In this document: positions 11,401 to 34,426 of the stretch, piece by piece
Layout of the letters: the number at the start of each line of letters is the position of its first letter
How positions within the stretch are numbered: the stretch's first letter is position 1
Origin: a virus
Direction: 5' to 3' (one strand)
Virus record (IMG/VR): IMGVR_UViG_3300021963_007714
Coordinates: 32,001 to 96,000 of that record
DNA length: 64,000 nucleotides
Made by a program: the position numbers and the translations under genes
The notes under the pieces: model-generated
Told to the model about the DNA's origin: nothing
The model's input: only the letters and a program-made list of their open reading frames with translations
Databases searched by the model: none

Positions 11401-14400
11401 ATTTCTAGATATCCAGCTACTCTAGCCAATCAATTTACTGATAATTTCACAATTGATAACAAGGGGTATGCCATTTACAATTATTTGCTGGCTAGAATGG
11501 CCCCTGGTATTAGAAAAGGTTATACCAGTAACATATTTTACGCCAGTGAAACAAGTAGATTAGGGCCTTTACCTAAGTTATCAAGTAGTATTGTAGTCAA
11601 ACCAGATTCATGGTATGCTAGTAGAACAGTTACATCTGTCCAAACAAGTTCTACTATTGTATATCCTAATGGCAGGATTGAAATAACAGGTCGTAGTCAA
11701 GAATATACCAATAACACAGTTAACCAATACATCTTTGATAGAGATATATTTGTTGGTTCTTATATACTGTTCAATTCAACATATCTATTAGATAGCAATC
11801 AATACGCTACACCCAATGCAGATCGAATTCAATACAACAGTGTGAATATATACACTTATGATTTAGAATTATATTCAAGAACCAATATATTCCTAGACAG
11901 ATCAGTTATAACCTTGTATTTTAATAAGAATACCATAGTAATTAATCCTAACAACATCGTTAGAGTTAGTAACCAGATTACAGGATACAGCAACACCTTT
12001 ACAATTTTTAATGTTACATCTAGATCAGTTGACCTGCTGAATCCTAATCCATATAGTACATTCCCATCTATAAGTAACCTATTTTTAGAATTTGGTGTAG
12101 TAACAACAAGCGATTCGGCAAGCTTCAGTAATTATAATCGCATACCGATTCTTACACAATCTAATCTACCTGTGAGATCTCCTAGTGTAAGAAGAATCGA
12201 AACCAGTGCTACAACAATGGTTATGAGCTTGCCTACATATAGAGATAGGCTAACCACTGCTGCGAAGGTAATTGCTCCTACACAAATTTCTACTCAGGTA
12301 GCTAAGTCTTCTATAAAGATCAGTATAGGGTCAACTGTAGTAAGTCAAAATTTCAATAGAACTCTAACAGGTATAACCACTTCTACCTCAATTGTCTATC
12401 ATAGTTCAAGAGTGGCGCAAGTTACCGCTATAGGCAATAAATTCACGAACAATATTGTAAGCCTGTACACATTTGAAAGAGATATAATTGTTACTCAAAC
12501 TATTATCAGTCCTACTATAGATGTTTACTATCAAAACATTGTTCCTACTCTTAACTATGATAAGGTAAAAATTGAGCGTGCCGATACAGGTTACTCATTT
12601 GAAAGTAACATAATCAGTTTCCATGCTGGTGTTAGCGGTCTTCCACCTTATATAAAATTACCAGTAAGTATAGGATTCCCTGAAGTCAGCGCAACTCCTA
12701 TATTTTTATCGTTTGGTATTGCTATTCAAAATAATACTCCAATTTATACTGATAGTAACCAAATTGGTTATGTACCTTTACAGAGATATATTAGACAGAA
12801 AAATCAAATATTAACCCCAGTAGTTCAGGCCATTGATGTACCAATGGATCTGCGCAAAACTTGGACTGGTTCTACTGCTAGTAGTGTTATATCATATAGC
12901 GGTAATTATGGATTATTACCTGCTCCGGCAAGTTACACAAGTGATTATGTTTCCACCTATATCAATGATAGTGATATTTTTGTAATCACTCCGTTGGCCT
13001 CTACATCAACCGTTGTTTTAAATTTCCAAACTCACTTAGATATAGTGACTAATTTGAATGAAAACAATGTGATTAGGTTAAGCAACGGAACTAACGAATG
13101 GCAAGCTATTCTTACTCCTACAAATGTGTCAACGACTGCAATCACTTTTACTTACGTTAATTTTCCAGTGATTAGTGAACCTCAGGTATCGTTCCAAAGA
13201 ACCAGTAGTATTGCTACAGCAACTTATACAATGTCAAGAAGTGGCATCTATGTGGAATCTTTGTCCAAACAGACTGTACAGGTTAAAGCAGTAGAGCGTC
13301 GTCCAGAATATGCTGTTACTCGTCAAGGCATAAAATTAATTGGAGAAATAAGTTATCCAGTTAGAACTCTAAGCACTGTAACATCTACCGCCACAATAAG
13401 TTATCCTGGACCTGGCATTGAAATCATAGCTAGAAACAATTTTGATGTCTATAACATTGTATCAGAATATACGTTTGATAGTAATATAATAAGGTCTACA
13501 TCTGTATTAGACACAGTTCAATATAATACTGTTAATCTTTATACCTTCGACAGAGATATATGGATTAGATCGGTCATACGAGAAAACATTACATTATTTT
13601 ATACATTAAACGGACCAAATCCTAGCAACATAATCAAACTATACAAGACTAATACAGGTTATGAAGCAACACCTACTGTACTAGCATTTACTAATTACGA
13701 AGATGGGAAAAAATCAGTTACCATAGCCTATGAACCTAACTTCCCATCAATAAGCAATATGTTTATTCAGTTTGGGTTCAACAGTATTTCTAGCACACCA
13801 ATTTACTTAGATAATAATAGAATACCGTTGGTTACTGGTCCTAGATTCTTAACCAAGAACTATAGGATTCTAAGTTTTGTTCCTGAAGTTAAAGAAGTAT
13901 ATAACCAAAAACAAACACTGACTACTGTAACAACTACTGCTACACAGGTTTTTCCAAATTATGGAATACATACAAGTCATATACCTGCTACCTACACCAG
14001 TGACTATGTAACTTACTATACATATGATAATGATCTGTTCCCACTGACTACAATTAGTCAACCTGGTAATATTACTCTATTCTTTACACCAACTGATTAT
14101 ATTAACAATACCAATCAAATAAGATTAGGTAATAAAGAATATACCTATCCTAGTGTAATAAATTTAACCAGTGCTACTAATACCAGTGTTAGCTTTAACA
14201 TTGTGGGATCATTCCCTATTATATCAGACCCCACAATATTTTTTGCCGAAAACTCGTATATCGACACGGCTATCTATACAGTCTCATCTAGACCTATCAC
14301 CTATGATATTATTAAGCCACAAGGTATAAAATTACAGGATCCATCCAGACCGATTATCACTAAATCAACACTAACAACATTTGTAACTCCTGTAACACAG

Positions 14401-17400
14401 AGATCCAGCATTCCAATAACAGGAATAATTCAGTCTCGAAATAATTTTATTCCTAGTATATATGTACGTGACAATGAAATCTTAAGTTTTACAACTAGCA
14501 CAGCTAATATCAGTGACTTTGTATCGGTGTATACTTTTGATAGAGATATAATAACGGTAAGCAGCTTCAATGCTATAACGCTACAATTTACCTATCCAGG
14601 ATTTAGACAAATTACCGATAAAATCGCAGTGACTAATGTTAACAGCGGATACAGAACAATTCATACTGTATTAACCAGTAGTGAACGCACAGTGACATTT
14701 GCTTCAACCAGTAATTTCCCAAGTGTTTCTGAACTGTATATTGACTTTAATTGGATTAGTTCAACAGCTACAATTTCATACAATGACAGCATCAGCAGTA
14801 TTGCTCTATATCAGCCTAGTCTAATGAGCGAAGGGCAAGTTAGACCAAATGTTATCAACGGAGCCAATGTAAGAGAAGCCTACTTTAAGAGCCTGTTACA
14901 ACCATCAAGAGCTGGTCGCAGATCATTTGTTTATACTACAGAGATCACACCTATAACATATAATCCAAGAATCGAATCTCTACGTACTGTGAATCAACTT
15001 AGAGCCGATAATAGTTATGCCACTAGACAATTAACAGGGCTGTCAACTTCTACAAATATTACCTATCCAAACGCCTCTGTTCCAGTAACTGCTAGAAGTG
15101 GTTTGTTTAATTATAATATTGTGAGAGATTACATCTTTGACAATAATATTTTACCTAGAGAGTCTAGAACAATCAGTGCCATAACATTGTTCTTTGATAA
15201 GAACACTCAATTAGTTACTAACTTGGTAAAAATACAAAGTCCAAGTTTAGGTTATAGTTTTGAAATTACAGCTCTAAGCACAAGTCAAAATAGCATTACA
15301 ATACCAGCTATTCCTTTGCCAGATATATTAGATCTAGTTGTTTATTTTGGAGTTAGTGTGAGCACTAATACACCGATTTACCTAGATTATAATAGGGTAC
15401 CTAATGTAGGTAATCCTAGAGCATTGACCAATAAAAATCAAATACTGAGCCCTGTAGTTTCTAATATAGCGGATATCTCAAACCAGTTTAAAAATTTAAA
15501 CACTGTCACTACAACAAGTACATTGGTATTTCCTAACATAGGTATTCCTATCACTAACCAGGCAGCACAGTATACCAGTGATGTAGTCTCTTACTATATC
15601 TATGATAATGATCTATTACCTATTACGCAGTTAGCATCTACTTCAACAGTTACTCTGTTCTTTAACACCACCACCTACATTAATACTGACAATAAGATTA
15701 AGATTGTTAATCCAAACTGGGAATCATCGGTATACAACCTAACATCTGCCACAAGTTCGTATATAACTTTTGAAGCTGCGAATTTTGGTATTGTAAGTGA
15801 GGGAAGAATATTATTTGCCCAGACTTCTACAATAGACACTGCTGTATACTCTGAGATTAAGATAGCTACTCCTGTGGCTAAACTTTGGACCGGCATTGTT
15901 GTTAAGGATCCTAGCACTCCTAGAATTACTGTAAGACAAACCAGTCAAACTGTGTTTACACCAATAAGGATAAGTGGTGCTATTCCTGTTACCGGAATAA
16001 GATCTAGATCAAATAATTTCGTCAATACCTATATCTATGATACTGAATTCTTAACGTTTACAACATCAAATAATATCACCATAACCTTCGATGCTGTCAG
16101 TGCTGCTCAAGTCGGAAACAGTGTAATTATACATAATGGTCTAGGTTATGTCTCATCGTTCAGTCTCACATCTGCTACCACAAGATTAGCCACTTTTGTT
16201 AATCCAGGTAATTTCCCAGAAATCACCGGAATGTATTTTTATTACTATACCACACAATCTTCTGCTGTGACAATAGGCAATTACGATATAGTTAATAACA
16301 TTACAACAACCACAAGTCAATTAAGTTACTCAAATCAAAGTCCATTCTTTTATCATAGACTTGGTGTAAAGGGAATACCATTCCAGCGTAATCAACTGGC
16401 TACCCAAAATACTCCTGTGGCAAATTATGTCAAGCAGGGGCTAAAGGTTGTTGCGGACAGTTCATATCCTGCTAGATCATTGATTTCAGTTACAACTTCT
16501 TCGGACATAGTTTACATTGGTAATCCAATTTATATCACAGCTAGAAGCACAGAATATACTAATAATGTAGTGAGCCAATATATATTCGAAACAGATAGAT
16601 TTATAGGTAATAGAATTGTTACTGCTACTATTACACTCAGCTTCTACCCGACTGTTTATATAAATCCATTGAACAAGATTAGGCTGGTAAATCCTAATAA
16701 CGGGTATAGCCAAGATATCAACATCAGTAGTTCTACAAATAGAACGATTACCTTTACTCCGCCTTTGGGTGATTTTCCTGCGATCAGTGATTTATACTTC
16801 TTATTTGGACAGACATCAATTTCTTCCACACCGATATATACTGACAACAACAAGGTTACATTAATAGCAGCAATGGCCGCTGTAAGACCAAAATCTGTTA
16901 GAGCATTAATGACTTTACCTGAAGTTGTTGATATTGATAGAGTTTTTCAAACACTGACAACAGTTACTTCGACTAGTTCTTTGGTATTCCCAGGCAGTGG
17001 CACGCCGATATTAAATCAATATCCCACAAATACAACCACAGCAGTGACATGGTACTATAATGATGAGGATATCTTATATGTAACTCAAAATACCAGCAGC
17101 ACTATACGTTTGGCTTTCGAGTCTTCGACTTACATTAATCCTGTCAATAAGATTAAGATCGCACATGATGGATATGAATATCAAAGCATTATTTCTTTGA
17201 CTAGCGCCACTGATACCTACATTGAATTCGCTGACCCAGGTAATTTCCCAGTAGTAATTAATTCTAGAATTTACTTTGCTCAAAGCACCACACAAGATAT
17301 TGCTGTGTATGGACAGGGACGAAGTCCTGTGCGTATTGAAAAATATAGAGATATTAGTATTCTAAAAGAAATTAGATCGACTATAACTTTTAGAACTACA

Positions 17401-20400
17401 AGTACAGTTTATCAAACGCCTACAGGTGCAGTATATCCATTAGCCCTAACTGGTCAGACTGATCTAGTTAATGATAATGTGGTCAATTGGTACATCTATG
17501 ATTACGATACTATAACATTTACTCCAATCACTACAAGCACCATTACCTATAGCTTTGCTACAGGTACTAATTTAATACCGTTAATAAAAAATTCTACTAT
17601 CTACATTTTTAACGAAAATACAAAAATTGGGCAAACTGCGGCAATCGTTGGATTTACTACCAGTACCTTAACTGTAACAAGACCTGGATTACTACCTGAA
17701 ATAAGCGGTACTACTATATATCTAAACTTTACAAGTACTACAGCAGTCAGCACATATTCAGATGATGTACAGAAGATTGCAGGTATTGAAACAAGTGACA
17801 GCTATAAGACTATTTTTGAACCGAGAAATCAAAAGGAAGCTCTATATTGGTCCCTGTTAGCACCTGGAAAGTATGGTCAAACTTTTCCAGCACAGGGTAA
17901 GTCATTAACCGAATTAATCGATAGAAATAAAACTGCGGCATTTTTTAACAAGCTGGTATATAGACCTATAGAAGTTAAAATAACAGACATTAATAATAGT
18001 CTGTCTAGTCCAATTACTGTAACGTCAACTGCCCTTACTTTCTTAAATCCGGGCTATGAAATTGTTGCGCAACTTCCAACGAGCCAATCGATGGACATAG
18101 TAAATTGGTACATAAACGAAAATACTTTATTGCCTATAACAGCCATTACTACCACAAGTTATCAATTAAACTTCTATGGCAACGTTTATCAAAATCCTCT
18201 AAACAAAGTTAGGATTGTAAAAGGAAATTATACAAGTGCTGTATTGACTGTGACCAATTCTATACCAAATCAAATTACAGTTAATGCACCTCTAGGACTT
18301 CCACCAGTTTCTGGAGGGTTCATCTACTTCGCAGACAACATCAGTATTGACACTGCTAGCTACACTGATGTAAAACGTGTGCCTGTCACCGGTAACTTAC
18401 TTACCCAATCAAGTATCGTAACTAATTTAGCACCTATAACACCTCAGCAACATTTATTTTGGAGCCTATTAAGTCCTAGTAGTTATGGTAGAAGTGAAAT
18501 CATAATTGGCAAGCAGACTGCTCCTATTGTTGGCGCTAGAGATATTAATCCTACTGTACAATCTGCTGTATATGGTACAAGCACGGTTATCTATATCACT
18601 AATCCAGTATCAGTTAATGGCAGATCAAATGAATTTACCAATAATGTTGTGAACGATTATATCTATGATAATGATATCAGTATCTTCGTTCCGATAACTA
18701 CCAGCACAGTGACATTATTCTACGATAATGATCAGGCCATAACTAGTAATTACATTAGGTTGGTGAAAAATTTCACAGGATATACACAAGATTTTAATGC
18801 TATAACAGTCACTAATTCACAAACTACCTTCGTAACAACAAGTAGTTTGCCTGCTATAAGTGAAATGCAAATTTACTTTGGCTATCCAACAATTACCGAT
18901 GTTATTACTTACAATGATACCGGAAGAGTGGAGAATATAGCCGCTATTTCTAGTATACCAAAACTTCAGCTCATTACATTGGGTATAAAAGGTTATAACG
19001 GTATTACACTAAATCCGTTAGATAAGGTGTTAAGAGAAAGTGATCCTTTCTATAAAATTAAAACTTTAACCTCTGTTTCATCTACTTCCACTATTGTATA
19101 TCCTAATCAAGGTTATGAACCTATCGCTGTAACAGATTCTATCAGTGATAATTTTGTAACTGTATATACCTACGATCAAGAAGTATTGTTACAGACCTAT
19201 ACCACAAGTTCGTTTATTACCTATGACTTTTATGCCACAGGATACTATATAAATCCAAATAACACTGTAAGAATAGTCAATAGCAATAATGGATTTGACA
19301 GAATTTACAGTATTGTATCTGCTACTAATTATTCTATCACAGTTTCTAATACCGGTGATCTTCCAGATGTTTCAGGAACAAGATTGTTCTTTGGCATTAA
19401 TACAACTATTGATACAGATAATTATTCATATAGTGTACAGAACTTCGATAATCTAATTGGTAATTTAACTCAAGCGTCACAAAGACTTGGAGAGGCTGTT
19501 TCTGGAATAAAATTATCTAGCTTTAGTTTACAAAATTATGATAACCCGGGATTCATATTAGATCCTTATTATGGAATTGTATCAGACTCAACCTATCAAA
19601 ATAATTCTTTAGAATATATTACCTATGATAAAGATGTTTTTGTTACAGGGATATTAAGTCGTGGAGTAACAACTACACTCTATATCAATAATCCATATAA
19701 TAAGATCTATGATCCAAAATTATTGTTTTATCCAACAAACTATGCCAAGTTAACCTTAGGTACCTTTACTAGTGTGGTTTACCTGTTGGCAACTGATTAT
19801 TATACAGTGACATTTAATACTGTAGCAGGTATGCCAGTAGAAGTTAATGGTATGACAATTGTAAATGTCAGCTATGCTTACTATCCACAAAGTGAAGCTA
19901 ATAAGATTGTATTGACCAATGGTATTTTATTCCAGCCTACTACTCCTAAGCAGGCACTAGCCAGCAGTTTGTACAATCCATTAAGGGGTATTGATTATAA
20001 CATTGATCGGGTTCTTCATCAACCTACTACAATACTGAAATACGATCCTAAACTCAGTACTTTCTATAGTAGTAGAATACCTGGAGATTTCAGTCATGTA
20101 TTGCTAGATCAAACATCAAATACTAGGGAAATATATGACATTCCTACCTGGTATGAATATGATCGTGACCTACTAACATATTCTACAGGTTCTGTATCTA
20201 CTAAGAAGCTAAGTTTCAATACTATTGTAGGTGTACCATTTCCTGCTGGTAGATCTATAAGAATTCGTAATGACAGCATTAATCTAAATTACATTACTAC
20301 AGTTACAGAAGCTGCAGTTGGATATGTTATTATAAATCAACCTACTGTGACCTTCCCAACAGCTGGTACTTTTGTAGAATTGGTTGAATCTGTGCTTTAT

Positions 20401-21672
20401 CCACAGAGTATGGTTGTAACCACTGTGTCTCCCCAATCCGCCAAAGAAAATCTGTATTACTTTGACAGAAGTCCAGGTTTAAGGGCTACTAAAGGACCAC
20501 CAGTTGCTAGTCTACAGACTTTATTAGATAGCGGCTCTGGAATAAGAAAAGACAGTACCATCATAAAGGGTGACGTTTTACGTTTTGATGTAGGAAAAAT
20601 CCTACAACCTATCAAAATCATCGCAGTAGATAATAGAGTTTCGGTGGCAAGTACTAAGATTAAATTGACTGCACGTAGTGTTCAAGATGATCGTAGAATA
20701 GTTGGCAAGCTAAGAAGTGCTATCACAGTAAGAGCTGATAGTTCAACCATTGTCTATGGTAAGTTGGCCGAAAGACGTATAGTACCTAACCTAGTGTCTG
20801 TGAGAGATAACCTGTCAGTGTCTAAACTTACCAACTATGAAAACATAGGTGAAGTTACTGGACCATATATCACTATAACTTCACATACAGATCTAGGAAG
20901 AACAGTTACAGGATATAGTCAAGAGTGGGCAGATAACTTTACCACAGTATATGCCTTTGACCAAGACATAATTACTCAAACCTATGTTAGAACTGACACT
21001 GTTCAAATATTTTATAATGCTGGTAATGATATAACACCCCTATTCCCTACAGGGTCAGAGTTTTACCTACAAGACCTTAACACCGGATATCAACGACAAT
21101 TTATAGCTTTAGAAGGCAATATTGGAAACGTAGTGATTAATAATCCAGGGTTCTTACCTGGTATCAGCAACATGCAGATAGTTTCAACTGCCTCTAGTTA
21201 TCCAATAACATTGACATTTGGTCAACAGGTACTACAGCCTTATTATGTGGGTAGTTATATCAGTGTAATTAATAGCATTGGCCAAAGTGTGAAAGTGGTT
21301 TTAACCGCAGCGACTAGAAGTAGTGTAACCTATGTTAAAAATTATTCTTACAGAGACTTTAGGTTTGCGCCAGGCAGTGTTAGTCTAGCCAGCTTGAGCG
21401 TACCAGTATACCCAAGTGCTACAGTTAGACCGACAAGCAAACCTACAAATATCAGAGAAAACTTATTCTTTGTAAGCCTGGCACCAAATTACGAGCACAG
21501 AGCAGAATTAGAATTTACCTACAGCAATTTGGTTGATGATGTCAGCGTGCTGTCCTATGATAGTGCTACCGGAATCATTAATAAATATATGGTTGGTGAT
21601 ACTGCTAAGGGCCAAACTGGAGTTACAGATCCTAGCGCCAGAAGAGTAGAACCCATACAGTTCTGGAGCTAA
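5494..21672 (+). CDS. Giant (5392 aa) repeat protein, probable virion structural/fibre protein
   Basis: Single 16.2-kb ORF; about 28 degenerate modules marked by (D/N)xVxxY(I/T)(Y/N/F)DxDxxxxT...NxIRI...LTSATNT...NPGxFPxIS; TAAATA at 5481. Confidence 0.8.
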   Translation: MPILVFPPPGSPGSQALTATFVVVVPEAGTPKQVLQSISTSTVTVFIQEGIPVTSQPAYYSADVVNWYINDNTLLPLTPVSQSTITLTYRSTPIYNPLNKIKIRSSSYEFPIIVTPTTVTSTSLSFTNPIELNLPVISDARIYFGENTTVETPRYSGDSVPTYELKYTGRKFPKIPVLEIPERGYQLTTVTNTTATLGPTVGVPIVNQTYFDSSNYVNYYLYDSDIFTVTHSVPPTITVNFVYDQRIKITNLIRVANQEYTYPRVLTLTSSTNSSITFNNPGDFGVWSQGYIYFQEINSIQIASYTATNNTVLLGNFDLVARRKVRIGVELAELPNLPNAEVVQKNDQLRAIGYQFGKPGPSFQNITTSSIVIFPNPGYSALTQSAYYSSDIVRNYIYDEDLFPLTASTESTVVLTFNPVEYINLVNKVRISGSSYTYPTILNLTSATNTSVSFVNPGDFPIISEPVIYFGQDSITENVRYSSDLVSEFSSALVSNPVFRIVQPLFELRPRAAILVTVTNYTSTMFSSIGIPILNQTAYYTSNVVDYYINDNDLLPLTAISTASITISFFNSIYTNQLNRVRIANETYEYPRVINLTTSNSTSITFNNPGDFGIISEGKIYFQESVTQVNSVYSESPYQFNIAYPTLDVKRHVRIGEQFVDTTLRVGSQELSTVTSSATIVYPGPAIPIPYLESKYLADVVNYYINDNDLLPLTNLTTASIRLNFAYTTFQNPINKIRIFGPEYNYPRLITITSATNTYVEFANPGDLPVISDPKFQFAENSQIDTAIYISRDFANFTYLPYRKVKLGNEIKASSTSTITSGAVARYKFSLPLTTQFSNQLPPNIGAINVWTALDHDLPFFNTPLVYNIAQTIYTTGFPAPGFYTYTSVQRGDVARGLAPITIPGDIASYTNNYLVFLGRAPLREPAAGLVKIGQGALTRRIVEPIRFTRPNIYITVTSATSFARSVNLQDIPAKYTSDYVSYYLYDNDIFTITNLSTVTSYVLPFIDSNVNLDLYTPDSTIQLANRDSGYIYPSPITFTSYDTTSVSITLASELPIISGPRLLFIQPSSVDILLTQSTASFITAQGSVGSLYTQSLVSSILPPVSPRERLFYSRLAPGYGLRGIPIAESTRSQIYPIATVTTPRVGEHVVIGDPFASVEPTLGLGNFTLKPRRSLVVGDGIAIAGNIFQPNRIEYSRFPGVSPGVDFGVYIRTLSTVTSSAAIVYPGPIIRVPYLDSNYTSDVVNWYINEETLLPLTAVSTSTIRLTFQNTSYVNPLNKIRVFNSNYTYPNSITPGLINLTSATNNYIEFANPGNFPVISEPRFQFAEISSVDVALFSTSATIVRPIASILTSTLVTATVFMSSLGAVDLITRRVKTNNFISTDITISSGATTLDYRRKNLLGSNIADVLSTATQLTAGTLTTRRSLRIGAILQDTQISTPVIAKFDFIVARARRIYSQWEGFYSSATQTITQITTTATIRYPNVGIPIISQQAKYSSDAVSWYIYDNNTLPINQITTSSITYFFDPFAYINPDNVFKAVNERTGVTHAPLYVTTSTAGSVTFANTSIPVVSDLKIYFGSSSTQDIVTYSSPIFLPRTESYADQFTAVNRASVPSALRNYYMHKIAPGYNSVQAVSFTHLTVGGRPPSQLDNYIGTDVITNESVNLGALPSNRYDVVNQYIYDTNVPQRTTGYDSNITLNFDNNNVPGVTPLRFKLGQTVRFTQSESTYTGTATITISNLQGVTFSTPSGFPVLGGIVVTNITTASYSVDWAFRDLSDKVTFRNNTRVLENLAQVGRKPNLRGISIFLERGITHQHTLHKTTSDGLDFYRDSRLEGDYPVQTTGRSAAEPILIPTPDLRNPYNIINSYIFDDNIITNNARADRIQYNAVQNYIYDNEIFTRSVISAFTGTNLVTYDFDRRDFNTFPAGSMIRLKYGLNQITTATVVSSTVYGVTIQDIKQFPGANNLTISRYPATLANQFTDNFTIDNKGYAIYNYLLARMAPGIRKGYTSNIFYASETSRLGPLPKLSSSIVVKPDSWYASRTVTSVQTSSTIVYPNGRIEITGRSQEYTNNTVNQYIFDRDIFVGSYILFNSTYLLDSNQYATPNADRIQYNSVNIYTYDLELYSRTNIFLDRSVITLYFNKNTIVINPNNIVRVSNQITGYSNTFTIFNVTSRSVDLLNPNPYSTFPSISNLFLEFGVVTTSDSASFSNYNRIPILTQSNLPVRSPSVRRIETSATTMVMSLPTYRDRLTTAAKVIAPTQISTQVAKSSIKISIGSTVVSQNFNRTLTGITTSTSIVYHSSRVAQVTAIGNKFTNNIVSLYTFERDIIVTQTIISPTIDVYYQNIVPTLNYDKVKIERADTGYSFESNIISFHAGVSGLPPYIKLPVSIGFPEVSATPIFLSFGIAIQNNTPIYTDSNQIGYVPLQRYIRQKNQILTPVVQAIDVPMDLRKTWTGSTASSVISYSGNYGLLPAPASYTSDYVSTYINDSDIFVITPLASTSTVVLNFQTHLDIVTNLNENNVIRLSNGTNEWQAILTPTNVSTTAITFTYVNFPVISEPQVSFQRTSSIATATYTMSRSGIYVESLSKQTVQVKAVERRPEYAVTRQGIKLIGEISYPVRTLSTVTSTATISYPGPGIEIIARNNFDVYNIVSEYTFDSNIIRSTSVLDTVQYNTVNLYTFDRDIWIRSVIRENITLFYTLNGPNPSNIIKLYKTNTGYEATPTVLAFTNYEDGKKSVTIAYEPNFPSISNMFIQFGFNSISSTPIYLDNNRIPLVTGPRFLTKNYRILSFVPEVKEVYNQKQTLTTVTTTATQVFPNYGIHTSHIPATYTSDYVTYYTYDNDLFPLTTISQPGNITLFFTPTDYINNTNQIRLGNKEYTYPSVINLTSATNTSVSFNIVGSFPIISDPTIFFAENSYIDTAIYTVSSRPITYDIIKPQGIKLQDPSRPIITKSTLTTFVTPVTQRSSIPITGIIQSRNNFIPSIYVRDNEILSFTTSTANISDFVSVYTFDRDIITVSSFNAITLQFTYPGFRQITDKIAVTNVNSGYRTIHTVLTSSERTVTFASTSNFPSVSELYIDFNWISSTATISYNDSISSIALYQPSLMSEGQVRPNVINGANVREAYFKSLLQPSRAGRRSFVYTTEITPITYNPRIESLRTVNQLRADNSYATRQLTGLSTSTNITYPNASVPVTARSGLFNYNIVRDYIFDNNILPRESRTISAITLFFDKNTQLVTNLVKIQSPSLGYSFEITALSTSQNSITIPAIPLPDILDLVVYFGVSVSTNTPIYLDYNRVPNVGNPRALTNKNQILSPVVSNIADISNQFKNLNTVTTTSTLVFPNIGIPITNQAAQYTSDVVSYYIYDNDLLPITQLASTSTVTLFFNTTTYINTDNKIKIVNPNWESSVYNLTSATSSYITFEAANFGIVSEGRILFAQTSTIDTAVYSEIKIATPVAKLWTGIVVKDPSTPRITVRQTSQTVFTPIRISGAIPVTGIRSRSNNFVNTYIYDTEFLTFTTSNNITITFDAVSAAQVGNSVIIHNGLGYVSSFSLTSATTRLATFVNPGNFPEITGMYFYYYTTQSSAVTIGNYDIVNNITTTTSQLSYSNQSPFFYHRLGVKGIPFQRNQLATQNTPVANYVKQGLKVVADSSYPARSLISVTTSSDIVYIGNPIYITARSTEYTNNVVSQYIFETDRFIGNRIVTATITLSFYPTVYINPLNKIRLVNPNNGYSQDINISSSTNRTITFTPPLGDFPAISDLYFLFGQTSISSTPIYTDNNKVTLIAAMAAVRPKSVRALMTLPEVVDIDRVFQTLTTVTSTSSLVFPGSGTPILNQYPTNTTTAVTWYYNDEDILYVTQNTSSTIRLAFESSTYINPVNKIKIAHDGYEYQSIISLTSATDTYIEFADPGNFPVVINSRIYFAQSTTQDIAVYGQGRSPVRIEKYRDISILKEIRSTITFRTTSTVYQTPTGAVYPLALTGQTDLVNDNVVNWYIYDYDTITFTPITTSTITYSFATGTNLIPLIKNSTIYIFNENTKIGQTAAIVGFTTSTLTVTRPGLLPEISGTTIYLNFTSTTAVSTYSDDVQKIAGIETSDSYKTIFEPRNQKEALYWSLLAPGKYGQTFPAQGKSLTELIDRNKTAAFFNKLVYRPIEVKITDINNSLSSPITVTSTALTFLNPGYEIVAQLPTSQSMDIVNWYINENTLLPITAITTTSYQLNFYGNVYQNPLNKVRIVKGNYTSAVLTVTNSIPNQITVNAPLGLPPVSGGFIYFADNISIDTASYTDVKRVPVTGNLLTQSSIVTNLAPITPQQHLFWSLLSPSSYGRSEIIIGKQTAPIVGARDINPTVQSAVYGTSTVIYITNPVSVNGRSNEFTNNVVNDYIYDNDISIFVPITTSTVTLFYDNDQAITSNYIRLVKNFTGYTQDFNAITVTNSQTTFVTTSSLPAISEMQIYFGYPTITDVITYNDTGRVENIAAISSIPKLQLITLGIKGYNGITLNPLDKVLRESDPFYKIKTLTSVSSTSTIVYPNQGYEPIAVTDSISDNFVTVYTYDQEVLLQTYTTSSFITYDFYATGYYINPNNTVRIVNSNNGFDRIYSIVSATNYSITVSNTGDLPDVSGTRLFFGINTTIDTDNYSYSVQNFDNLIGNLTQASQRLGEAVSGIKLSSFSLQNYDNPGFILDPYYGIVSDSTYQNNSLEYITYDKDVFVTGILSRGVTTTLYINNPYNKIYDPKLLFYPTNYAKLTLGTFTSVVYLLATDYYTVTFNTVAGMPVEVNGMTIVNVSYAYYPQSEANKIVLTNGILFQPTTPKQALASSLYNPLRGIDYNIDRVLHQPTTILKYDPKLSTFYSSRIPGDFSHVLLDQTSNTREIYDIPTWYEYDRDLLTYSTGSVSTKKLSFNTIVGVPFPAGRSIRIRNDSINLNYITTVTEAAVGYVIINQPTVTFPTAGTFVELVESVLYPQSMVVTTVSPQSAKENLYYFDRSPGLRATKGPPVASLQTLLDSGSGIRKDSTIIKGDVLRFDVGKILQPIKIIAVDNRVSVASTKIKLTARSVQDDRRIVGKLRSAITVRADSSTIVYGKLAERRIVPNLVSVRDNLSVSKLTNYENIGEVTGPYITITSHTDLGRTVTGYSQEWADNFTTVYAFDQDIITQTYVRTDTVQIFYNAGNDITPLFPTGSEFYLQDLNTGYQRQFIALEGNIGNVVINNPGFLPGISNMQIVSTASSYPITLTFGQQVLQPYYVGSYISVINSIGQSVKVVLTAATRSSVTYVKNYSYRDFRFAPGSVSLASLSVPVYPSATVRPTSKPTNIRENLFFVSLAPNYEHRAELEFTYSNLVDDVSVLSYDSATGIINKYMVGDTAKGQTGVTDPSARRVEPIQFWS

Positions 21673-25110: not shown

Positions 25111-25142
25111 AAAGAAGGCTGCTATACGCAGCCTTTCTTTTT
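25111..25142 (+). terminator. Rho-independent terminator
   Basis: AAGGCTGC-tatac-GCAGCCTT followed by T-rich tract. Confidence 0.85.
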
Positions 25143-25157
25143 AATAAATATAAGATC

Positions 25158-28100
25158 ATGCGATTAGAAGACATCAAAGAAGGCAGCAGAGTTGATCATC
25201 AACATCAATTCAAAGAGATGTTTGCTAGATTCCTACCTATTGCTATAGAAATTCTCAATCTAAAATCTCTGCCTGAATTTCACTTTGAAGCATTTTTAGA
25301 TCATCCTCAACAACCTACCTTCGGTATGTATGTCAACGGTGAAAATAAATTGTATGTAGGCCTAAGTGGTCGTCATCCTAATGACATCTTTAGAACCATA
25401 GCACATGAATTAACTCACTACAAACAAGACACTGAACACATGCTGGATGATCGCAGCGGCGAGACTGGTAGTCCTATTGAAAACCAAGCCAATGCCATGG
25501 CTGGTATCATCATGCGTCATTTTAACAAAACCTATCCTGACTATCTTCGCAGTAAACCTGTTATGGAAGATATTGATGTCACTGATGAAAGTCTCAAAGG
25601 TTTGGCTGCTGCTGGACTAATAGGTCTAGGCATGTTAGGTGGTCCCAAAGATGTAGCCAGTGGTAACCTACCACAAGACCTACAAAAGGCACAGCAGCAA
25701 CACCGTGTTCAAATGGCTAAGAAACCTATGGCCAAACCCGCAGCGACAAAACCAGCAGCAGCTAAACCTTTACCAGCTAAAGCGACCCCTTTGTTAAAAG
25801 TAGCCAAGGCTAATGGTATTAAAGGCGTAGAACTAGCACAGTTTTTGGCACAAATGGAACATGAAAGTCTTGACTTTAAGAAGATGAAGGAGTTAGGTAA
25901 ATCGACCTACTTCAACAAATATGATCCAAAACATAACCCTAAATTAGCTAATAAATTAGGAAACAAATTCAAGGGTGACGGACTACAATTTAGAGGTCGT
26001 GGCTTTATACAATTAACAGGCAGAGAAAACTATACACAGGCCAGTCGTGACATATTTGGTGATGATAGGTTAGTTAAGAAACCAGACCTAGCAGCACAGC
26101 CAGATATAGCAGCACGTATAGCAGTATGGTATTGGACTGATCGTGTGAAACCTTTGGTCAAAGACTTTTCAGATACTACTCGTGTTACAAAGATTATCAA
26201 TGGTGGACTAAACGGACTTGAAGATAGAGAAAATAATTTCAGAGACTATATGGCCAGTCTTGGCCTAATGGAAAAATGGTCAATGAAGTATAAAAAGAGT
26301 ATCAATTGCGCCAATCCCAAAGGGTTCAGTCAGCGTGCTCACTGTCAAGGTCGTAAGAAAACAGAAGATGTAGAACAAGATCCAGGAGATCCTATACCTT
26401 TTCCAGCAGGCACTACTTCGGTAGATGTTAGTGATCCCTATGATTGGTATAAACTAGGCATGGTAATAAGTGATCTAGATGATGCCAATCCTCAAGCATT
26501 TGGACGAGGTGGTCCCAGCACTGTGATTGCCTTTGGCAGTGAAGATGAAGAACATAGACTGCTGCCATACCTTAAAAGACTTGGACTTAAACTAAAAGAC
26601 ATTGACAAACCCAGTGACACTAGAAAAATTGTGCCCGCCAAGGCTGTGTTAGACAAATTGGAAGAAGGTTTTAAACTAGACGAACTTAATATTAATCAAA
26701 CGCTGGCCTTTATCAAACAGGCACATGGTGATCAACTCTATGGCAAACTGCCCTATTGGACCCATCCTCGTGCTGTAGCCATGACAGGCAAAAAGATCTT
26801 TGGCAACAAGTTTAATAGTGATGCTGTAAAGGTTGCCTTCTTACATGATGTGGTAGAAGATACTAATATAAGTATAGATGAATTAGGCAAGTTAGACTTT
26901 TCACCACAGGTCATTGAAGCAGTGAGCCTGCTGACAAAGAACAAGACATTGACCTATCGTCAAAATATAGAAAACATTATCAACAGCGGCAACCCTTTGG
27001 CCATGATGGTCAAATATGCTGACAACTATGAAAACTATTCAGGTGATAAGAGCGACTGGGATTCTGCTCGAGCAGCCAGCAGTCAAAAGAAATACTTGAT
27101 GAGCCTTAATATGTTAGGGAGTAAGTTAGGTGTAAAACATCACGAGCAAAATTTAAAAGAACTAGGAACTACACAATATAAAGTAACAGAACCTAGAGAC
27201 ATGGTCAACGTTGATTTTAGATCCAAGCAAATTACCTACAAAGTTTTTAAATTCAAAGTAGATAAGCAGGTATTTCTAATTGTGCTCACTGTAAAAGACC
27301 AGGCAATGCCGGGCTCTAAGAAAAAGGTTCCAACCCTAAATGTAGCGTTTGGTAGGCAAGATAAAAACGGTTGGGACGTTGACGATATTGACACTAACCT
27401 AACTGGTGATAATCAAAATCAATTTCAAATCTATTCCACTGTGATCAAGGCCATACAAAAGTTTATTACTCAATTGAATCCTAATGTAGCACAAATTATA
27501 ATAAAAGGAGACAATGAGAGACAACAGGTAATGTATGATAGATTTTTTAATTCACGCTACTTGGAGAAATTTTTTCCAGGTTGGCAATTAAACCCAACAA
27601 CTAAAACTCTAATAAAAAATCAAAGTCAAAATTTAAAGGAACTTTTGGACCCTAAATTAGCCATAGATCTTGATTGGGCAGAGGGTAGTGATTATATTGC
27701 TGCCAGAGGTTATGTCACAGTGACTGATCAATATGGCAACAAAGAAGATGTAGAATTAGAAGTAGAATTCGGGGAATTTCCACAAAGAAATCGTAAAGAA
27801 TACGAAGTTCAATTTAAAGTAGGCGATAGTTATGATATAACAGGTGGTGGCAACGCTAATGTGATTTTTGCCACGGTTATACAGGCCTGTAAAGATTTCG
27901 TGGAAATGTATAAACCAGATCGATTATTCTTCACAGCAAAAGAGCAGTCTAGAGCAAGAATGTATGATACACTGACTAAACGTGTGGCCAAGCAGGTAGG
28001 ATGGCACGTTATACCATTTGATGAAATACAAAAGGATCCATTGTATAGAAATAACAGTGATAATGGGTTCGTGTTTGTCATAGGGAAAGGTGCTGCACCT

Positions 28101-28547
28101 GAAAAATGGTCCAGTGCTCAACAGCCACAACACGGTAGTTTTATGCCTATTTTCTATGTATATAATGTAGATAAAGATACACCTACTGTGGCAGTTAAGG
28201 TTAGGGCCCCAAATAGGGAGACTGCTGTTCAGCACGCTATGAAAATAGAACCCAGTTTTAAAGATTTGGATTTAATGCAGATACACGCCTTGAACAGCCT
28301 ACCCAAGCGTGAAGTCACTGATGTAATAGATGGTGGCACAGCAGAAGATCCTAGAAAGGTAGGAGAAAACTTTGCTGATGGTAAGAATCCACAGGATAAA
28401 GGTGATAGTGGTAGACACGGCATAAAAAAAGGTATTACAATAGCACAACTAAAAAAGATTAGATCCAGTGACTCAGCCAGTCCAAGAAAAAAGCAGTTGG
28501 CACACTGGCAGATCAATATGAGACAGGGGCGTAGTAAAAAAGGATAA
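25158..28547 (+). CDS. Multidomain protein: zincin (HExxH) + GH19 muramidase + RelA/SpoT-type HD hydrolase + unknown modules; probable virion polyprotein
   Basis: IAHELTH; AQMEHES...RGRGFIQLTGRENY...TKIINGGLNGLEDR (GH19); AHGDQ..PYWTHP..LHDVVEDT..VKYADN (HD hydrolase). Confidence 0.8.
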   Translation: MRLEDIKEGSRVDHQHQFKEMFARFLPIAIEILNLKSLPEFHFEAFLDHPQQPTFGMYVNGENKLYVGLSGRHPNDIFRTIAHELTHYKQDTEHMLDDRSGETGSPIENQANAMAGIIMRHFNKTYPDYLRSKPVMEDIDVTDESLKGLAAAGLIGLGMLGGPKDVASGNLPQDLQKAQQQHRVQMAKKPMAKPAATKPAAAKPLPAKATPLLKVAKANGIKGVELAQFLAQMEHESLDFKKMKELGKSTYFNKYDPKHNPKLANKLGNKFKGDGLQFRGRGFIQLTGRENYTQASRDIFGDDRLVKKPDLAAQPDIAARIAVWYWTDRVKPLVKDFSDTTRVTKIINGGLNGLEDRENNFRDYMASLGLMEKWSMKYKKSINCANPKGFSQRAHCQGRKKTEDVEQDPGDPIPFPAGTTSVDVSDPYDWYKLGMVISDLDDANPQAFGRGGPSTVIAFGSEDEEHRLLPYLKRLGLKLKDIDKPSDTRKIVPAKAVLDKLEEGFKLDELNINQTLAFIKQAHGDQLYGKLPYWTHPRAVAMTGKKIFGNKFNSDAVKVAFLHDVVEDTNISIDELGKLDFSPQVIEAVSLLTKNKTLTYRQNIENIINSGNPLAMMVKYADNYENYSGDKSDWDSARAASSQKKYLMSLNMLGSKLGVKHHEQNLKELGTTQYKVTEPRDMVNVDFRSKQITYKVFKFKVDKQVFLIVLTVKDQAMPGSKKKVPTLNVAFGRQDKNGWDVDDIDTNLTGDNQNQFQIYSTVIKAIQKFITQLNPNVAQIIIKGDNERQQVMYDRFFNSRYLEKFFPGWQLNPTTKTLIKNQSQNLKELLDPKLAIDLDWAEGSDYIAARGYVTVTDQYGNKEDVELEVEFGEFPQRNRKEYEVQFKVGDSYDITGGGNANVIFATVIQACKDFVEMYKPDRLFFTAKEQSRARMYDTLTKRVAKQVGWHVIPFDEIQKDPLYRNNSDNGFVFVIGKGAAPEKWSSAQQPQHGSFMPIFYVYNVDKDTPTVAVKVRAPNRETAVQHAMKIEPSFKDLDLMQIHALNSLPKREVTDVIDGGTAEDPRKVGENFADGKNPQDKGDSGRHGIKKGITIAQLKKIRSSDSASPRKKQLAHWQINMRQGRSKKG

Positions 28548-31378: not shown

Positions 31379-31615
31379 GTGTCTGGACCAACAGATATTG
31401 AAAAAGAAAATCTTGAGGCACATGTAGAACTTTGTGCTGTCAGATATAAAGAAATAGAAAATAGATTAAGTGCGATTGAGGGCAGTGTTTCTAGCCTCAA
31501 AAAAACTGTAGAAGAAAGCCACATGAATACTATTAAAGTTTTAATAGGAACAGCTGGCACAGTAGTTGCCAGTGTGTTAGGTGTTTTAGTTGTCGTTCTA
31601 CAGAAAATGTCATGA
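31379..31615 (+). CDS. Coiled-coil protein with C-terminal transmembrane helix
   Basis: GTG start with AGGAG RBS; heptad segment then IGTAGTVVASVLGVLVVVL. Confidence 0.65.
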   Translation: MSGPTDIEKENLEAHVELCAVRYKEIENRLSAIEGSVSSLKKTVEESHMNTIKVLIGTAGTVVASVLGVLVVVLQKMS

Positions 31616-31998
31616 AAATACAAGAGCTATTAGGCGAACAAACCATAGGAACTTCAGGCTCTACTACAGGACCGGTAGGAACTGTATCACAGGTTAGTCA
31701 AAAACCCAGTGATAAACCTATGACCGCTACTAGCACACAACAAGACTCAACTACAAAAAATCTAGACAATCTATTAAAACAAAATCAAATCAATGTGAAA
31801 AATACAGATGATTTTTTAAGAGCTTTTGACGCCATACAACAAAAGCAACCTATCAATAATCTTCCACCTGAGCAACAAAAGGCCATAGGTGACTATACCA
31901 AAGCTACTATTAATCGTCCTGGTTTACCTACACAAATGGCTTCTATAATGAAGTCTATAAAAACTGCTAATACAAACAACACAGCTAAACCTGCTTGA
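31612..31998 (+). CDS. Hypothetical protein, possible head-internal protein
   Basis: N-terminus MKIQELLGE; ATGA overlap. Confidence 0.6.
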   Translation: MKIQELLGEQTIGTSGSTTGPVGTVSQVSQKPSDKPMTATSTQQDSTTKNLDNLLKQNQINVKNTDDFLRAFDAIQQKQPINNLPPEQQKAIGDYTKATINRPGLPTQMASIMKSIKTANTNNTAKPA

Positions 31999-31999
31999 T

Positions 32000-32470
32000 A
32001 TGAAATCTATTCCAACTAATCTAGTTCATGAGCTTTCTATTATCAAACAGAATGTCAAGCGTGAACTAAAAAAGAAAGGTATGGTCCCCGCCAGAACTAC
32101 CAAGGATGGTAATGTTCAGGTAGGAAATTATGTAATCGAAAAAGATTCAAATGATCTTTTTCTAATCAAAGATATTGACGGCATATCTTTATATGAAAAA
32201 ATTAATCTGGCACAATCTGCTATAATATTGGCTAATAATCTAGCTCTTGGTATTAAAACAACACATGATATTTTATTCTACGACAATTATTATGGGCATT
32301 ATCTCTTTAGTGAACAACATTGTAAACATCTTTATGATAAATCCAGAGCTAGAAAAGATTATGACCAGGCAGAAATAGTGTTTGAAAAATTAACTACTTC
32401 TAGGTTAAAGAAGAAATATTACTACAATATTATTACGTCAGGATTTGATAAACTGATGAAAATAGTATAA
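32000..32470 (+). CDS. Hypothetical protein
   Basis: 156-aa ORF in operon context. Confidence 0.65.
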   Translation: MKSIPTNLVHELSIIKQNVKRELKKKGMVPARTTKDGNVQVGNYVIEKDSNDLFLIKDIDGISLYEKINLAQSAIILANNLALGIKTTHDILFYDNYYGHYLFSEQHCKHLYDKSRARKDYDQAEIVFEKLTTSRLKKKYYYNIITSGFDKLMKIV

Positions 32471-32495: not shown

Positions 32496-34070
32496 ATGAA
32501 AACCGAAGATTTCAACAAAAAAATTGATAGTAAAAAGCTGAGAGAATCAATTTCCAAAAAATTTGGCGTTGAGCTTCAGTTTGATCATTATAATAGAGAA
32601 CAATTAGAAGATTATAGAAATAAACTTCGTACAAGAATTTTTCAAGCAGAAGGATCTTCAGGTATAAATGATTTACTCAATAACGAATCATATCAGAAAG
32701 ATAAAGCAATTTTACAATTGCTCAACACAAGGATTAAAGAGATGCTAGGCGAAGACCTTAAAAAATTAAGAGATAAAATTGATGCTTTGGAAGAAGCAAA
32801 AAAAGGTGTTCGCGCACCTAAATATACAAAGAAAGCCAAAGGTGCTAACGACGGCAATCTTGCTAATAATTATCCTCCATTTGATAAAGTTACCAGAGGC
32901 GATGTAATCGCTGGTGCTACTGGTAAAGATCAAAAGGGCGGCAATAAGAAAGATGTAAAAGCTGACGAAGGACGCCGTATTTCAGGCAAAGGCTATGACA
33001 ATCCTGAGCATGATAGTAAACCGCCAGAGGGCAAAGTTCCCTTTACCAGTTTCCATCAAGGCAAGCAAGGTGATCAAGCAGCAAGACTACATGCCACACA
33101 GGTCAAAGGTAAGTTGGTCAAGGGCAAGGCACAGAGCGCCAAGCAGGATGAGCCAGGTGTAAAAGAAGAAAAGTTTGATCCGTTAAAGCACGTTAAAAAT
33201 CCTACACCGGGTGAAAAGAAAGCCGCTAAAGATGTTAAACGTAGTAGCTATGCTGATCGTGCCGCAATGTTAAGATCAGCAGAAAAAGATGGACGCTTAA
33301 AAGAAGCCGATGACAAGTGTAATCACACACCAAAAGGTAAGAAATGTCCAGTCCATGGCCTAAAAGAGTGCGGCACAATGGAAGGCAAGGACGAAGGTAA
33401 GCCAGGCAAGAACTTTGCTAAGATCGCCAAGAAAGCAGGCGAGAAGTATGGCAGCAAGGCAGCAGGCGAGCGTGTAGCAGGCGCTGTCCGTCAAAAATTA
33501 AAGAAGGCTGGTAAGTTAGAAGAATCTAATCTAATCTTCAAGCGTAATGTTCGCACAGTGAACGAAAGCTTAGCCTATCTACTCAGTGAAAATGAAGAAG
33601 AAAAAGCAAAGAGCATCACAGCAGCTGGTGATATTGTAAATGATTTTACTAGTTGGATGCAGCGTGTAGGCCAATATCAAACCAAATCAATGATTGAACT
33701 TGCTGATAAGATTCGCAGTGATTTTGGTCCAGCAGAAGCTGAAGCATTTAAGCAGGCTGTAGGCCCAGCTCTAAGTGCAACATTAGAACTACTAACTCAA
33801 CAGCGTGAAATAATCAGTAACGCAGTAGCAGCACTGGCCGGAGAACAAATGCCTACAGAACCAATGGGCATGGAACCAGGAGCTGATATGTCTGAACCAG
33901 GAATGGACGCTGCTGAACCAGACATGATGAATGAACCACCTAGCGATGAGTTTGCCGCAGCAGACGCAGCAGCAGGCGGCGCTGAAGCAGCTGGTCGTGA
34001 AATGCGTGAAAGCAAGTTTGCTCGCAAACTGGCAGAAAGTCATAGCATTATCAGCAAACTAGCAAGATGA
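32496..34070 (+). CDS. Charged coiled-coil protein, putative prohead core/scaffold
   Basis: 524 aa, Lys/Glu rich, many LEE/LKE/VKE/xES motifs, acidic Pro/Met tail; TATAAATA at 32466. Confidence 0.5.
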   Translation: MKTEDFNKKIDSKKLRESISKKFGVELQFDHYNREQLEDYRNKLRTRIFQAEGSSGINDLLNNESYQKDKAILQLLNTRIKEMLGEDLKKLRDKIDALEEAKKGVRAPKYTKKAKGANDGNLANNYPPFDKVTRGDVIAGATGKDQKGGNKKDVKADEGRRISGKGYDNPEHDSKPPEGKVPFTSFHQGKQGDQAARLHATQVKGKLVKGKAQSAKQDEPGVKEEKFDPLKHVKNPTPGEKKAAKDVKRSSYADRAAMLRSAEKDGRLKEADDKCNHTPKGKKCPVHGLKECGTMEGKDEGKPGKNFAKIAKKAGEKYGSKAAGERVAGAVRQKLKKAGKLEESNLIFKRNVRTVNESLAYLLSENEEEKAKSITAAGDIVNDFTSWMQRVGQYQTKSMIELADKIRSDFGPAEAEAFKQAVGPALSATLELLTQQREIISNAVAALAGEQMPTEPMGMEPGADMSEPGMDAAEPDMMNEPPSDEFAAADAAAGGAEAAGREMRESKFARKLAESHSIISKLAR

Positions 34071-34426
34071 AAATTGTAGAGCTCTTTGAAGATCCAACTT
34101 ATGACGTTGGATCTCTTAGAAGTGCTTTGGCTGTAAGACAGGGCCAGGCTCGTAAATCAGGCCTGGCCAAAGAATTACCACTCAGTGTAATAAAAGATAT
34201 AGCTCGTGATCTAGGTATTAGTATCACTGACTTAGATACACTAAAACAATTCAAAGATAAAATTGATCCAGCTGGTGATGTTTTTGATATCACCGACCAA
34301 GGATCTATATTACTCAAAAATCCAGATAAATTAGCCCACTTAACCAAAGGTGGGGGTCCTAGTGTAGATGCAATGGCCAGCAGTAATGCTAAAACTATTG
34401 GATCTGCTCACGGCTCAAAAATTTGA
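34067..34426 (+). CDS. Hypothetical protein
   Basis: MKIVELFE N-terminus; ATGA overlap. Confidence 0.65.
   Translation: MKIVELFEDPTYDVGSLRSALAVRQGQARKSGLAKELPLSVIKDIARDLGISITDLDTLKQFKDKIDPAGDVFDITDQGSILLKNPDKLAHLTKGGGPSVDAMASSNAKTIGSAHGSKI

Follow-up and report, generated by a model that had tools for sequence, protein, structure and literature searches.

A candidate head-cargo polyprotein with prohead-protease-like motifs at its exchangeable module joints in an uncultured T4-like jumbo phage

The window analysed here is a stretch of 64,000 nucleotides (nt) from the virus record IMGVR_UViG_3300021963_007714 (positions 32,001 to 96,000), which is a 109-kb IMG/VR viral contig with an estimated completeness of about 30%. 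At window positions 25158..28547 (+) lies one open reading frame (ORF) of 1129 codons with zero internal stops, and its product of 1129 amino acids (aa), P0001, is a chain of dissimilar modules. We hold with moderate confidence that P0001 is a polyprotein that serves as head cargo in a T4-like jumbo phage; it would be cut at its joints by a gp21-type prohead protease and delivered together with the DNA, and this reading is drawn from the sequence. A preliminary description had listed a zincin, a hydrophobic helix with a GH19 muramidase, a short Cys motif, an unknown domain, an HD hydrolase, two related modules and a basic C-terminal module, connected by triplets that end in Glu. All of these elements were located in P0001, searches with the individual segments confirmed the modules, and every listed triplet is in its place. 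The layout of the chain is as follows (CTS, capsid-targeting sequence; pLDDT, predicted local distance difference test; a slash marks a putative cut site here and below).

25158..25181 (+), leader MRLEDIKE, aa 1-8, a putative CTS-like propeptide that ends in I-K-E (family N-terminal pattern; low pLDDT at aa 1-10)
25182..25568 (+), module A, a probable small zincin, aa 9-137, with HELTH at aa 83-87 and the end ...SKPVME (fold, weak profiles, breakpoints at aa 136-140)
25569..25589 (+), acidic spacer DIDVTDE, aa 138-144 (between homology breakpoints; low pLDDT)
25590..26273 (+), module B, a Gly/Ala-rich hydrophobic helix, a Pro/Ala/Lys linker and a GH19 muramidase, aa 145-372, with the end ...GLME (profiles, breakpoints)
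26274..26366 (+), module C, a basic two-Cys peptide, aa 373-403, xWSxKYKxSINCxNPKGFSQRAHCQGRKK (sequence reading, upstream contexts)
26367..26684 (+), module D, aa 404-503, with the core IPFPxGT..VDVSDxYDWYKLG..FGSEEEEH..DID, followed by LEE/GFKLDE/ at aa 501-509 (conservation)
26685..27161 (+), module E, an HD hydrolase, probably of the RelA/SpoT/Mesh1/small-alarmone-hydrolase type, with LHDVVEDT, aa 510-668, with the end ...GVKHHEQNLKE (phrog_990, PDB phmmer)
27162..27641 (+), module F, the first DUF6934-like module, aa 669-828, flanked by a 17-nt direct repeat (PF22028)
27642..28367 (+), module G, the second DUF6934-like module with an extension, aa 829-1070, with the end ...PRKVGE (PF22028)
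28368..28547 (+), module H, a basic tail of 59 aa, aa 1071-1129 plus the stop codon, isoelectric point (pI) 11.2, NFADGKNPQDKGDS..RKKQLAHWQINM (family C-terminus)

Relatives were gathered by a search of 5.8 billion proteins, and they match P0001 only block by block. Some 200 of them exchange modules at sharp junctions, so that blocks of 75-90% identity are bounded by unrelated sequence on both sides; the modules are swapped exactly at the junctions of P0001, which answers a check that the preliminary description had proposed. The breakpoints cluster at aa 136-140, 368-372, 404-415, 505-509, 662-666, 828 and 1066-1070. The Glu triplets of P0001 are IKE (aa 6-8), VME (135-137), TDE (142-144), LME (370-372), KTE (401-403), LEE (501-503), LDE (507-509), LKE (666-668 and 826-828) and VGE (1068-1070). 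The motif [ILVMFY]xE is common by itself and occurs 19 times in P0001. When junction zones were set by the homology breakpoints, independently of the motif, it was found in six of the seven zones, and just one of 20,000 random placements equalled this score; the placement of the motif is thus not a matter of chance. The same holds for the family, as the motif lies within 5 aa of 39.8% of 450 non-redundant breakpoints in 197 proteins, compared with 17.6 ± 1.8% for random positions. A chance origin was rejected on the grounds of both results.

The individual joints show how strict the motif is. Directly before NFADG, the start of module H, the residue preceding the putative cut (P1) is Glu in 83 of 83 distinct contexts, and in 78 of them P3 is occupied by V, I, L, M, F or Y, with P2 free and the upstream modules unrelated to each other. 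Hydrophobic-x-Glu also stands immediately upstream of module C (xWSxKYKxS) in all 26 distinct contexts, irrespective of whether these are the end of a GH19 module, the end of a zincin or a bare leader. Module F is preceded by the motif in 4/4 distinct contexts (L-x-E/LGTTQY), and module G follows NLKE/ in P0001 and a bare leader in three relatives, for example MRVREIIIE/LFDPKLAIDLEW (MRVREIIIE/LFDPKLA...). Relatives close their zincin module with KP[VI][VI]xE and continue with unrelated sequence, and module D ends in FEE/, MEE/ or NVxE/ before different modules. In T4, gp21 cleaves after the Glu of L/I-x-E, and Asp at P1 blocks processing (PMC9026906). Asp almost never takes the place of the P1 Glu in the family, which fits the behaviour of the T4 enzyme.

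The N-terminus offers further evidence. Members of the family begin with M[KR]xx[DE][IFLV][ILV]xE, or in a narrower form M[KR]xx[DE][IF][IL]xE, in front of differing first modules. Among 122 H-bearing proteins the first six positions of this pattern fit in 96 and the full pattern fits in 62. The leader shared by the relatives has 9 aa; in P0001 it reads MRLEDIKE, with I-K-E at aa 6-8. The capsid-targeting sequence of T4 is MKTYQEFIAE (PMC8442874). Some proteins of the family consist of nothing but the leader and module H, such as a mini-protein of 69 aa that starts with MKTFKDFISE/NFLDG..., and its leader resembles the T4 sequence closely at the level of a short motif. No match to a leader-plus-H mini-protein was found in the isolated-phage collection, and nucleotide and protein searches of P0001 against isolated phages returned matches to the GH19 part only.

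Module H is carried by at least 1190 clusters (50% identity) and is almost always C-terminal; in the relatives tested it occurs in a single copy per genome. It is not always C-terminal, since some proteins bear it at their N-terminus. The proteins P0189, P0151, P0153, P0186, P0219 and P0247 are leader-plus-H mini-proteins or have an N-terminal H with extra modules, and these extra modules start after ...NMRxGxxK(x)NE. A search of the protein atlas with H returned unnamed viral clusters only, and neither H nor the C and D modules together had a Pfam match at E ≤ 1. Modelling with AlphaFold2 predicts the helical part of H (aa 1079-1129) at a pLDDT of 85-95, and the conserved ...VGENFADGKNPQD falls into a low-confidence stretch. 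For the conserved ...xENFADGKNPQDKG the prediction is an unstructured segment, which is what a linear recognition motif should be.

Further leader-like starts occur near P0001, namely MKIQELLGE, MKTEDF..., MKIVELFED..., MRFSEF...PLEE and MRAREFV. The ORFs concerned are located at window positions 31612-31998, 32496-34070, 34067-34426 and 53683-54804 and at G000:C1:31172-31426. Including P0001, there are 7 such starts among about 150 genes, with roughly 0.7 expected. One leader-like ORF of 119 aa continues with DPTYDVGS, which may be compared with DPTYNVGE at the end of module D in relatives. These nearby leader-bearing ORFs may encode further capsid-targeted proteins.

A protease of the appropriate type is encoded by the relatives. 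Peptidase_S77, the gp21-type family, was found in all three relatives with 100%-complete genomes (364-400 kb), in one that is 71% complete and in one 37%-complete fragment. The three complete relatives and the 71%-complete one also encode a Gp23-type capsid protein (4/4 tested). Ahead of their conserved body, at a distance of 40 residues from the N-terminus, these capsid proteins contain ...RKYL[AS]E/[ST]A.... We take YL[AS]E/[ST]A to be the probable counterpart of the propeptide cut in T4 gp23. In the complete relatives (L081-L084) the head genes are arranged in the order acidic scaffold-like protein, gp21-type protease, a protein of 362-366 aa that starts with MLDxLKxLFENNVISEEIK, and gp23-type capsid protein. 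The latter has 389-392 aa in these phages; T4 gp23 is longer.

A rival reading is that the chain is cut by the zincin at its own start, either in the head or after ejection. The zincin fold of P0001 has an intact HExxH, and autoproteolysis by MPTase domains has been proposed for DdrB of phage P1 and other proteins (PMC5512222). However, a zincin is absent from 87 of the 122 relatives that bear H, and hydrophobic-x-Glu before H persists in 86 of those 87. The built-in zincin is thus not needed for the joints. It is also one exchangeable module among others in the relatives, and the motif fits the serine protease gp21 and no known zincin specificity. Self-processing is therefore very improbable, and cleavage by the protein's own zincin was rejected as a candidate because of the zincin-less majority.

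The zincin assignment draws on the predicted fold. Its profile matches are weak (phrog_87, E 1e-3; Peptidase_M78, E 0.008, below the cut-off), and the MPTase-PolyVal model is not among the Pfam matches of P0001, of which Peptidase_M78 is the top one. The AlphaFold2 model is confident at a pLDDT of 70-96 over aa 11-138, and local Foldseek matches link it to PprI (PprI/IrrE), abylysin and Wss1 with probabilities of 0.98-0.99 and E values of just 0.03-0.08. With the full model, Foldseek gave no match at E ≤ 0.001 and only the local zincin and GH19 matches. Next to the confidently predicted folds, IKE8, VME137 and VGE1070 fall into flanking segments with a low pLDDT. Glu motifs inside folded domains, which would speak against cleavage, were thus not seen at these three sites.

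P0001 has at least two unrelated effector-type domains (zincin, GH19, HD and two DUF6934 modules) and virion-gene neighbours, and in these features it agrees with the polyvalent proteins described by Iyer, Burroughs, Anand, de Souza and Aravind in 2017. The proteins of that class likewise combine numerous unrelated enzymatic domains within a single polypeptide, are encoded in a late or virion gene context, include zincin, peptidoglycan hydrolase, GNAT, nucleotidyltransferase, ADP-ribosyltransferase and deaminase modules, and undergo rapid domain shuffling (PMC5512222). The partner enzymes found in relatives of P0001 are HAD phosphatases, GNATs, a nucleotidyltransferase, deaminases, Amidoligase_2, ART-PolyVal (PF18760, carried by relative P0106) and LysM. 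For polyvalent proteins, processing by a built-in peptidase or none at all was proposed (PMC5512222). P0001 could be a multidomain virion protein that stays uncut or is trimmed at its ends, with the triplets being linker features or joints favoured by recombination. A zincin and a peptidoglycan hydrolase combined with various other enzymes, encoded among late genes, are in keeping with the published class, and the virion RNA polymerase of N4 is a precedent for packaging in unprocessed form (PMC5512222).

Recombination at the joints has left traces. A 17-nt direct repeat, CAAAATTTAAA[A/G]GAACT, brackets module F at window positions 27147-27163 and 27627-27643; its copies are identical at 16 of 17 positions, lie 480 nt apart and in frame, and code for QNLKEL. 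The repeat looks like a recombination footprint at the joints that encode the cut sites. In a close relative module E is deleted between two joints. A protein of 297 aa from a complete genome (G001) consists of the leader, the zincin, LAE/SIEPLNE/ and a module E that ends exactly with GVKHHL and the stop codon. The repeat and the relative without module E indicate that the joints act as recombination points, in agreement with an uncut protein. On the other hand, a motif of three residues whose middle position is free has too little length, and too much degeneracy in the DNA, to steer recombination between proteins that are 35-60% identical. Glu at P1 in 146 of 147 H-module representatives (at most 50% mutual identity, drawn from 1190 clusters), together with the hydrophobic P3, points to a constraint at the protein level, and selection on the protein better explains joints marked by a degenerate three-residue motif with a strict Glu. 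Moreover, the same triplet ends the N-terminal leader, and a protease that belongs to exactly this class of specificity is encoded by relatives. The description of the polyvalent proteins contains neither a CTS leader nor a prohead-protease motif at every joint nor module H (PMC5512222). An uncut or end-trimmed chain is therefore unlikely, though it deserves more weight than self-processing.

The muramidase raises the question of whether P0001 acts at the cell wall from outside the head. The GH19 part spans approximately aa 207-372 and has a partial match to PF00182 (33.1 bits, cut-off 25.5), a strong match to phrog_181 (E 1.5e-41) and 37% identity to the solved phage endolysin 9ms7 (Foldseek); the breakpoints of module B are at aa 368 and 370-372. 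Judged by their spacing, Glu236 and Glu245 in ...MEHES...MKELG are candidates for the catalytic pair. From sequence reading, the Gly/Ala-rich hydrophobic helix occupies aa 145-162. This helix, SLKGLAAAGLIGLGMLGG, is reminiscent of signal-arrest-release segments, and the GH19 part is labelled as an endolysin by PHROG. The gene is surrounded by baseplate wedge, tail-fibre and virion structural genes. P0001 might be a lysin of the tail or baseplate, or else a lysis protein tethered to the membrane and equipped with an endolysin module of the signal-arrest-release type; GH19 would then act at the tail tip or during lysis, and the other modules would be accessory. The helix is internal rather than N-terminal, however, and several relatives have a separate GH19 gene of 205-211 aa that is a better endolysin candidate. 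In complete relatives this gene lies beside or close behind the polyprotein gene (L029, 10987-11622; L045, 12844-13461), and its product is likely the true endolysin; a role of the GH19 module as lysis endolysin was rejected for this reason. The 109-kb contig showed no second GH19. Both the leader with its T4-CTS-like pattern and the leader-plus-H mini-proteins, which are similar to T4 internal proteins, point to the head, and QLTG, the marker of GH19, is missing in 59 of the 122 relatives. A function in the tail or in lysis is improbable on balance.

The remaining modules differ in how well they can be assigned. Module C contains the Cys motif KWSMKYKKSINC...HC at aa 373-396. Module D has 20 invariant columns in alignment A4 and is present in 96 of the 122 H-bearing relatives. 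The HD region (aa 510-660) matches phrog_990 at E 4e-29, and phmmer against the PDB retrieved Lmo0812, hydrolase domains of Rel/SpoT, MESH1, a (p)ppApp hydrolase and SAH (E 4e-6 to 4e-3); the Pfam matches to HD (20.6 bits) and HD_4 (17.8 bits) are below their cut-offs, and LHDVVEDT is present. The breakpoints of module E are sharp (aa 507 and 662). DUF6934 (PF22028) matches the whole P0001 in two stretches with 45 bits against a cut-off of 27; taken separately, the two pieces score 25.8 and 27.0 bits.

If P0001 is head cargo, the following course of events can be proposed. The T4-CTS-type N-terminal leader would dock the chain on the scaffolding core of the prohead. The gp21-type prohead protease would then cut after the Glu of hydrophobic-x-Glu, thereby removing the leader and splitting the chain at its joints. 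The predicted products are the leader of 8 aa, a 15-kDa zincin, a 25-kDa helix-GH19 protein, a 3.6-kDa Cys peptide (possibly joined to D), module D of 11 kDa, an HD hydrolase of 18 kDa, one DUF6934 protein of 19 kDa and another of 27 kDa, and the basic H of 6.6 kDa. These products would be retained in the filled head and exit with the DNA at infection, when the muramidase and the hydrophobic helix may help to cross the wall and the membrane. The cargo enzymes would act on the host ahead of any phage gene expression. The HD module could remove alarmones at time zero, and H might associate with the DNA. The sequence and the example of T4 lead us to infer that the chain is packaged and cleaved, that its products stay in the head and are ejected, and what each of them does.

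Several observations weigh against this scheme. Neither Peptidase_S77 nor Gp23 was found on the phage's own contig, which covers 109 kb or about 30% of the genome, and the link of P0001 to gp21 rests on relatives for that reason. The genes that adjoin P0001 are tail and baseplate genes rather than head genes. MRLEDIKE is a weaker match to the leader consensus, and close relatives that begin with a zincin lack the Glu at position 9. Thirteen hydrophobic-x-Glu triplets fall inside modules, and one could also see in the conserved triplets simply the residues with which each module begins. In the producing cell, the chain could be anchored in the membrane by its internal hydrophobic helix. The role of the joints as recombination points, set out above, belongs here too. 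Structure prediction is uninformative for most of P0001, as the full-length AlphaFold2 model has a mean pLDDT of 52 and is usable only for the zincin (aa 11-138) and H. This poor result is explained by the mosaic relatives, which align badly; the MAFFT alignments from fragments (A1) and from whole proteins (A2) were both poor. For C plus D, even the good alignment A4 yielded a pLDDT of 61 and no usable fold. Finally, TDE and the C/D joint KTE (KKTE) lack a hydrophobic P3. The preliminary view that nearly every junction ends in hydrophobic-x-Glu or a similar Glu motif agrees with six of the seven zones; these two triplets depart from the hydrophobic-x-Glu pattern. Since they are non-canonical, the number of about eight products is uncertain, and C and D may stay joined. 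The idea of a packaged and processed chain is supported by the sequence, and the term effectors for all of the products is conjectural.

The closest parallel to the proposed head cargo is provided by IPI, IPII and IPIII, which are internal proteins of T4, and by Alt. Both systems share a short leader of the same pattern (family M[KR]xx[DE][IF][IL]xE, MKTFKDFISE in relatives, MKTYQEFIAE in T4) and a Glu cut motif (L/I-x-E in T4; PMC9026906), and H, with its pI of 11.2, is small and very basic like the basic internal proteins. In both cases variable cargo follows a conserved tag, and Alt, an ADP-ribosyltransferase, is a precedent for enzymes as cargo (PMC3012670, PMC9026906). T4 cargo proteins have a single module and one cut, however, whereas the P0001 family chains up to about eight modules with a putative site at every joint and mostly ends in the conserved H. 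No sequence homology between the cargo of the family and the T4 internal proteins was found. In the giant phages phiKZ, 201phi2-1 and SPN3US, a diverged gp21-type protease cuts many head proteins after the Glu of S/A-x-E, sometimes at several sites, and the cleavage products are ejection proteins (PMC9026906). The residue at P3 is small in these phages but hydrophobic in T4 and the P0001 family, and the head and inner-body proteins concerned do not consist of exchangeable enzymes in a chain. A further comparison concerns the muralytic function. T7 gp16 and similar proteins carry a virion-borne muralytic domain that is ejected to open the wall, and ejection proteins have membrane-active segments. 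T7 gp16 differs from P0001 in having a lytic transglycosylase fold instead of GH19 and no modular chain with protease joints. Neither the cited work on T4 internal proteins nor that on polyvalent proteins mentions H or a chain in which every exchangeable joint carries a prohead-protease motif, and literature searches yielded no published account of them.

A broader interpretation is that P0001 represents a general system of uncultured T4-like jumbo phages with the format tag, cargo, cut site, cargo and basic tail. The protease motif would then be both a processing signal and the boundary for module exchange, and a single-copy gene could evolve as a combinatorial kit of injected enzymes that act against host defences at time zero; H would represent a novel type of internal protein that associates with DNA. 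We regard this generalization as tentative, with its chances slightly below even. The kit enzymes would comprise the putative alarmone hydrolase in P0001 and, in relatives, HAD phosphatases, GNATs, nucleotidyltransferases, deaminases, amidoligases and ADP-ribosyltransferases. In T4, a tag of 10 residues and one protease cut are enough to load a protein into the capsid and to deliver it into the cell. If the proposal is true, the P0001 family would extend this tag-and-cut loading to a polyprotein format, in which the head protease frees many enzymes per gene and phages trade modules with one another at the cut sites. The large family would then be a rich and unexplored source of candidate enzymes that are injected against defences or for host takeover. 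An alarmone-type hydrolase, for example, could weaken responses based on (p)ppGpp or (p)ppApp ahead of phage transcription. The leader and the hydrophobic-x-Glu joints could serve as an annotation rule for head cargo in metagenomic T4-like phages, and they would provide natural design rules for loading multiple proteins into T4-type capsids of laboratory strains.

The gene content of the contig includes T4-type baseplate wedge proteins, tail fibres, a DNA ligase, a DNA polymerase, a ribonucleotide reductase and a PstS-like gene, and several of its virion structural proteins are about 42% identical to their counterparts in T4-like cyanophages. A second fragment (L002) is syntenic. The region directly upstream of the P0001 gene has the following layout.

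25113..25157 (+), terminator-like hairpin GAAGGCTGC...GCAGCCTTC with a T-run, then AATAAATA 7 nt before the ATG (sequence reading)

By analogy with the T4-type late promoter TATAAATA, the ATAAATA before P0001 would be a late-promoter-like motif. This motif and the setting of the gene among virion genes speak for the head-cargo reading. ATAAATA occurs 4-22 nt upstream of 11 ORF starts in the window, which accounts for 11 of its 18 copies on the + strand (examples at 25144, 30895, 32467, 35184, 43903, 52170, 53669, 54820, 56631 and 61938). Several copies are merely 4-7 nt from the ATG. Such spacing would suit elements akin to late promoters whose messages are nearly leaderless, or else a function in the initiation of translation.

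Upstream of P0001 are an ORF of 5392 aa and a phrog_5838 virion protein. The large ORF (window 5494-21672, +) sits between tail-fibre-like genes and the phrog_5838 gene, and its first 4999 residues gave no Pfam match at E ≤ 0.01. In L002 the equivalent position is taken by an ORF of 1567 aa, with 26% identity over 239 aa only. Outside the window, at G000:C1:7253-11821 (L096), three radical-SAM-like genes are adjacent to each other, two matching phrog_14086 followed by one that is phrog_13987/QueE-like, and this trio is located upstream of the structural block. The PstS-like gene lies at G000:C1:101487-102500.

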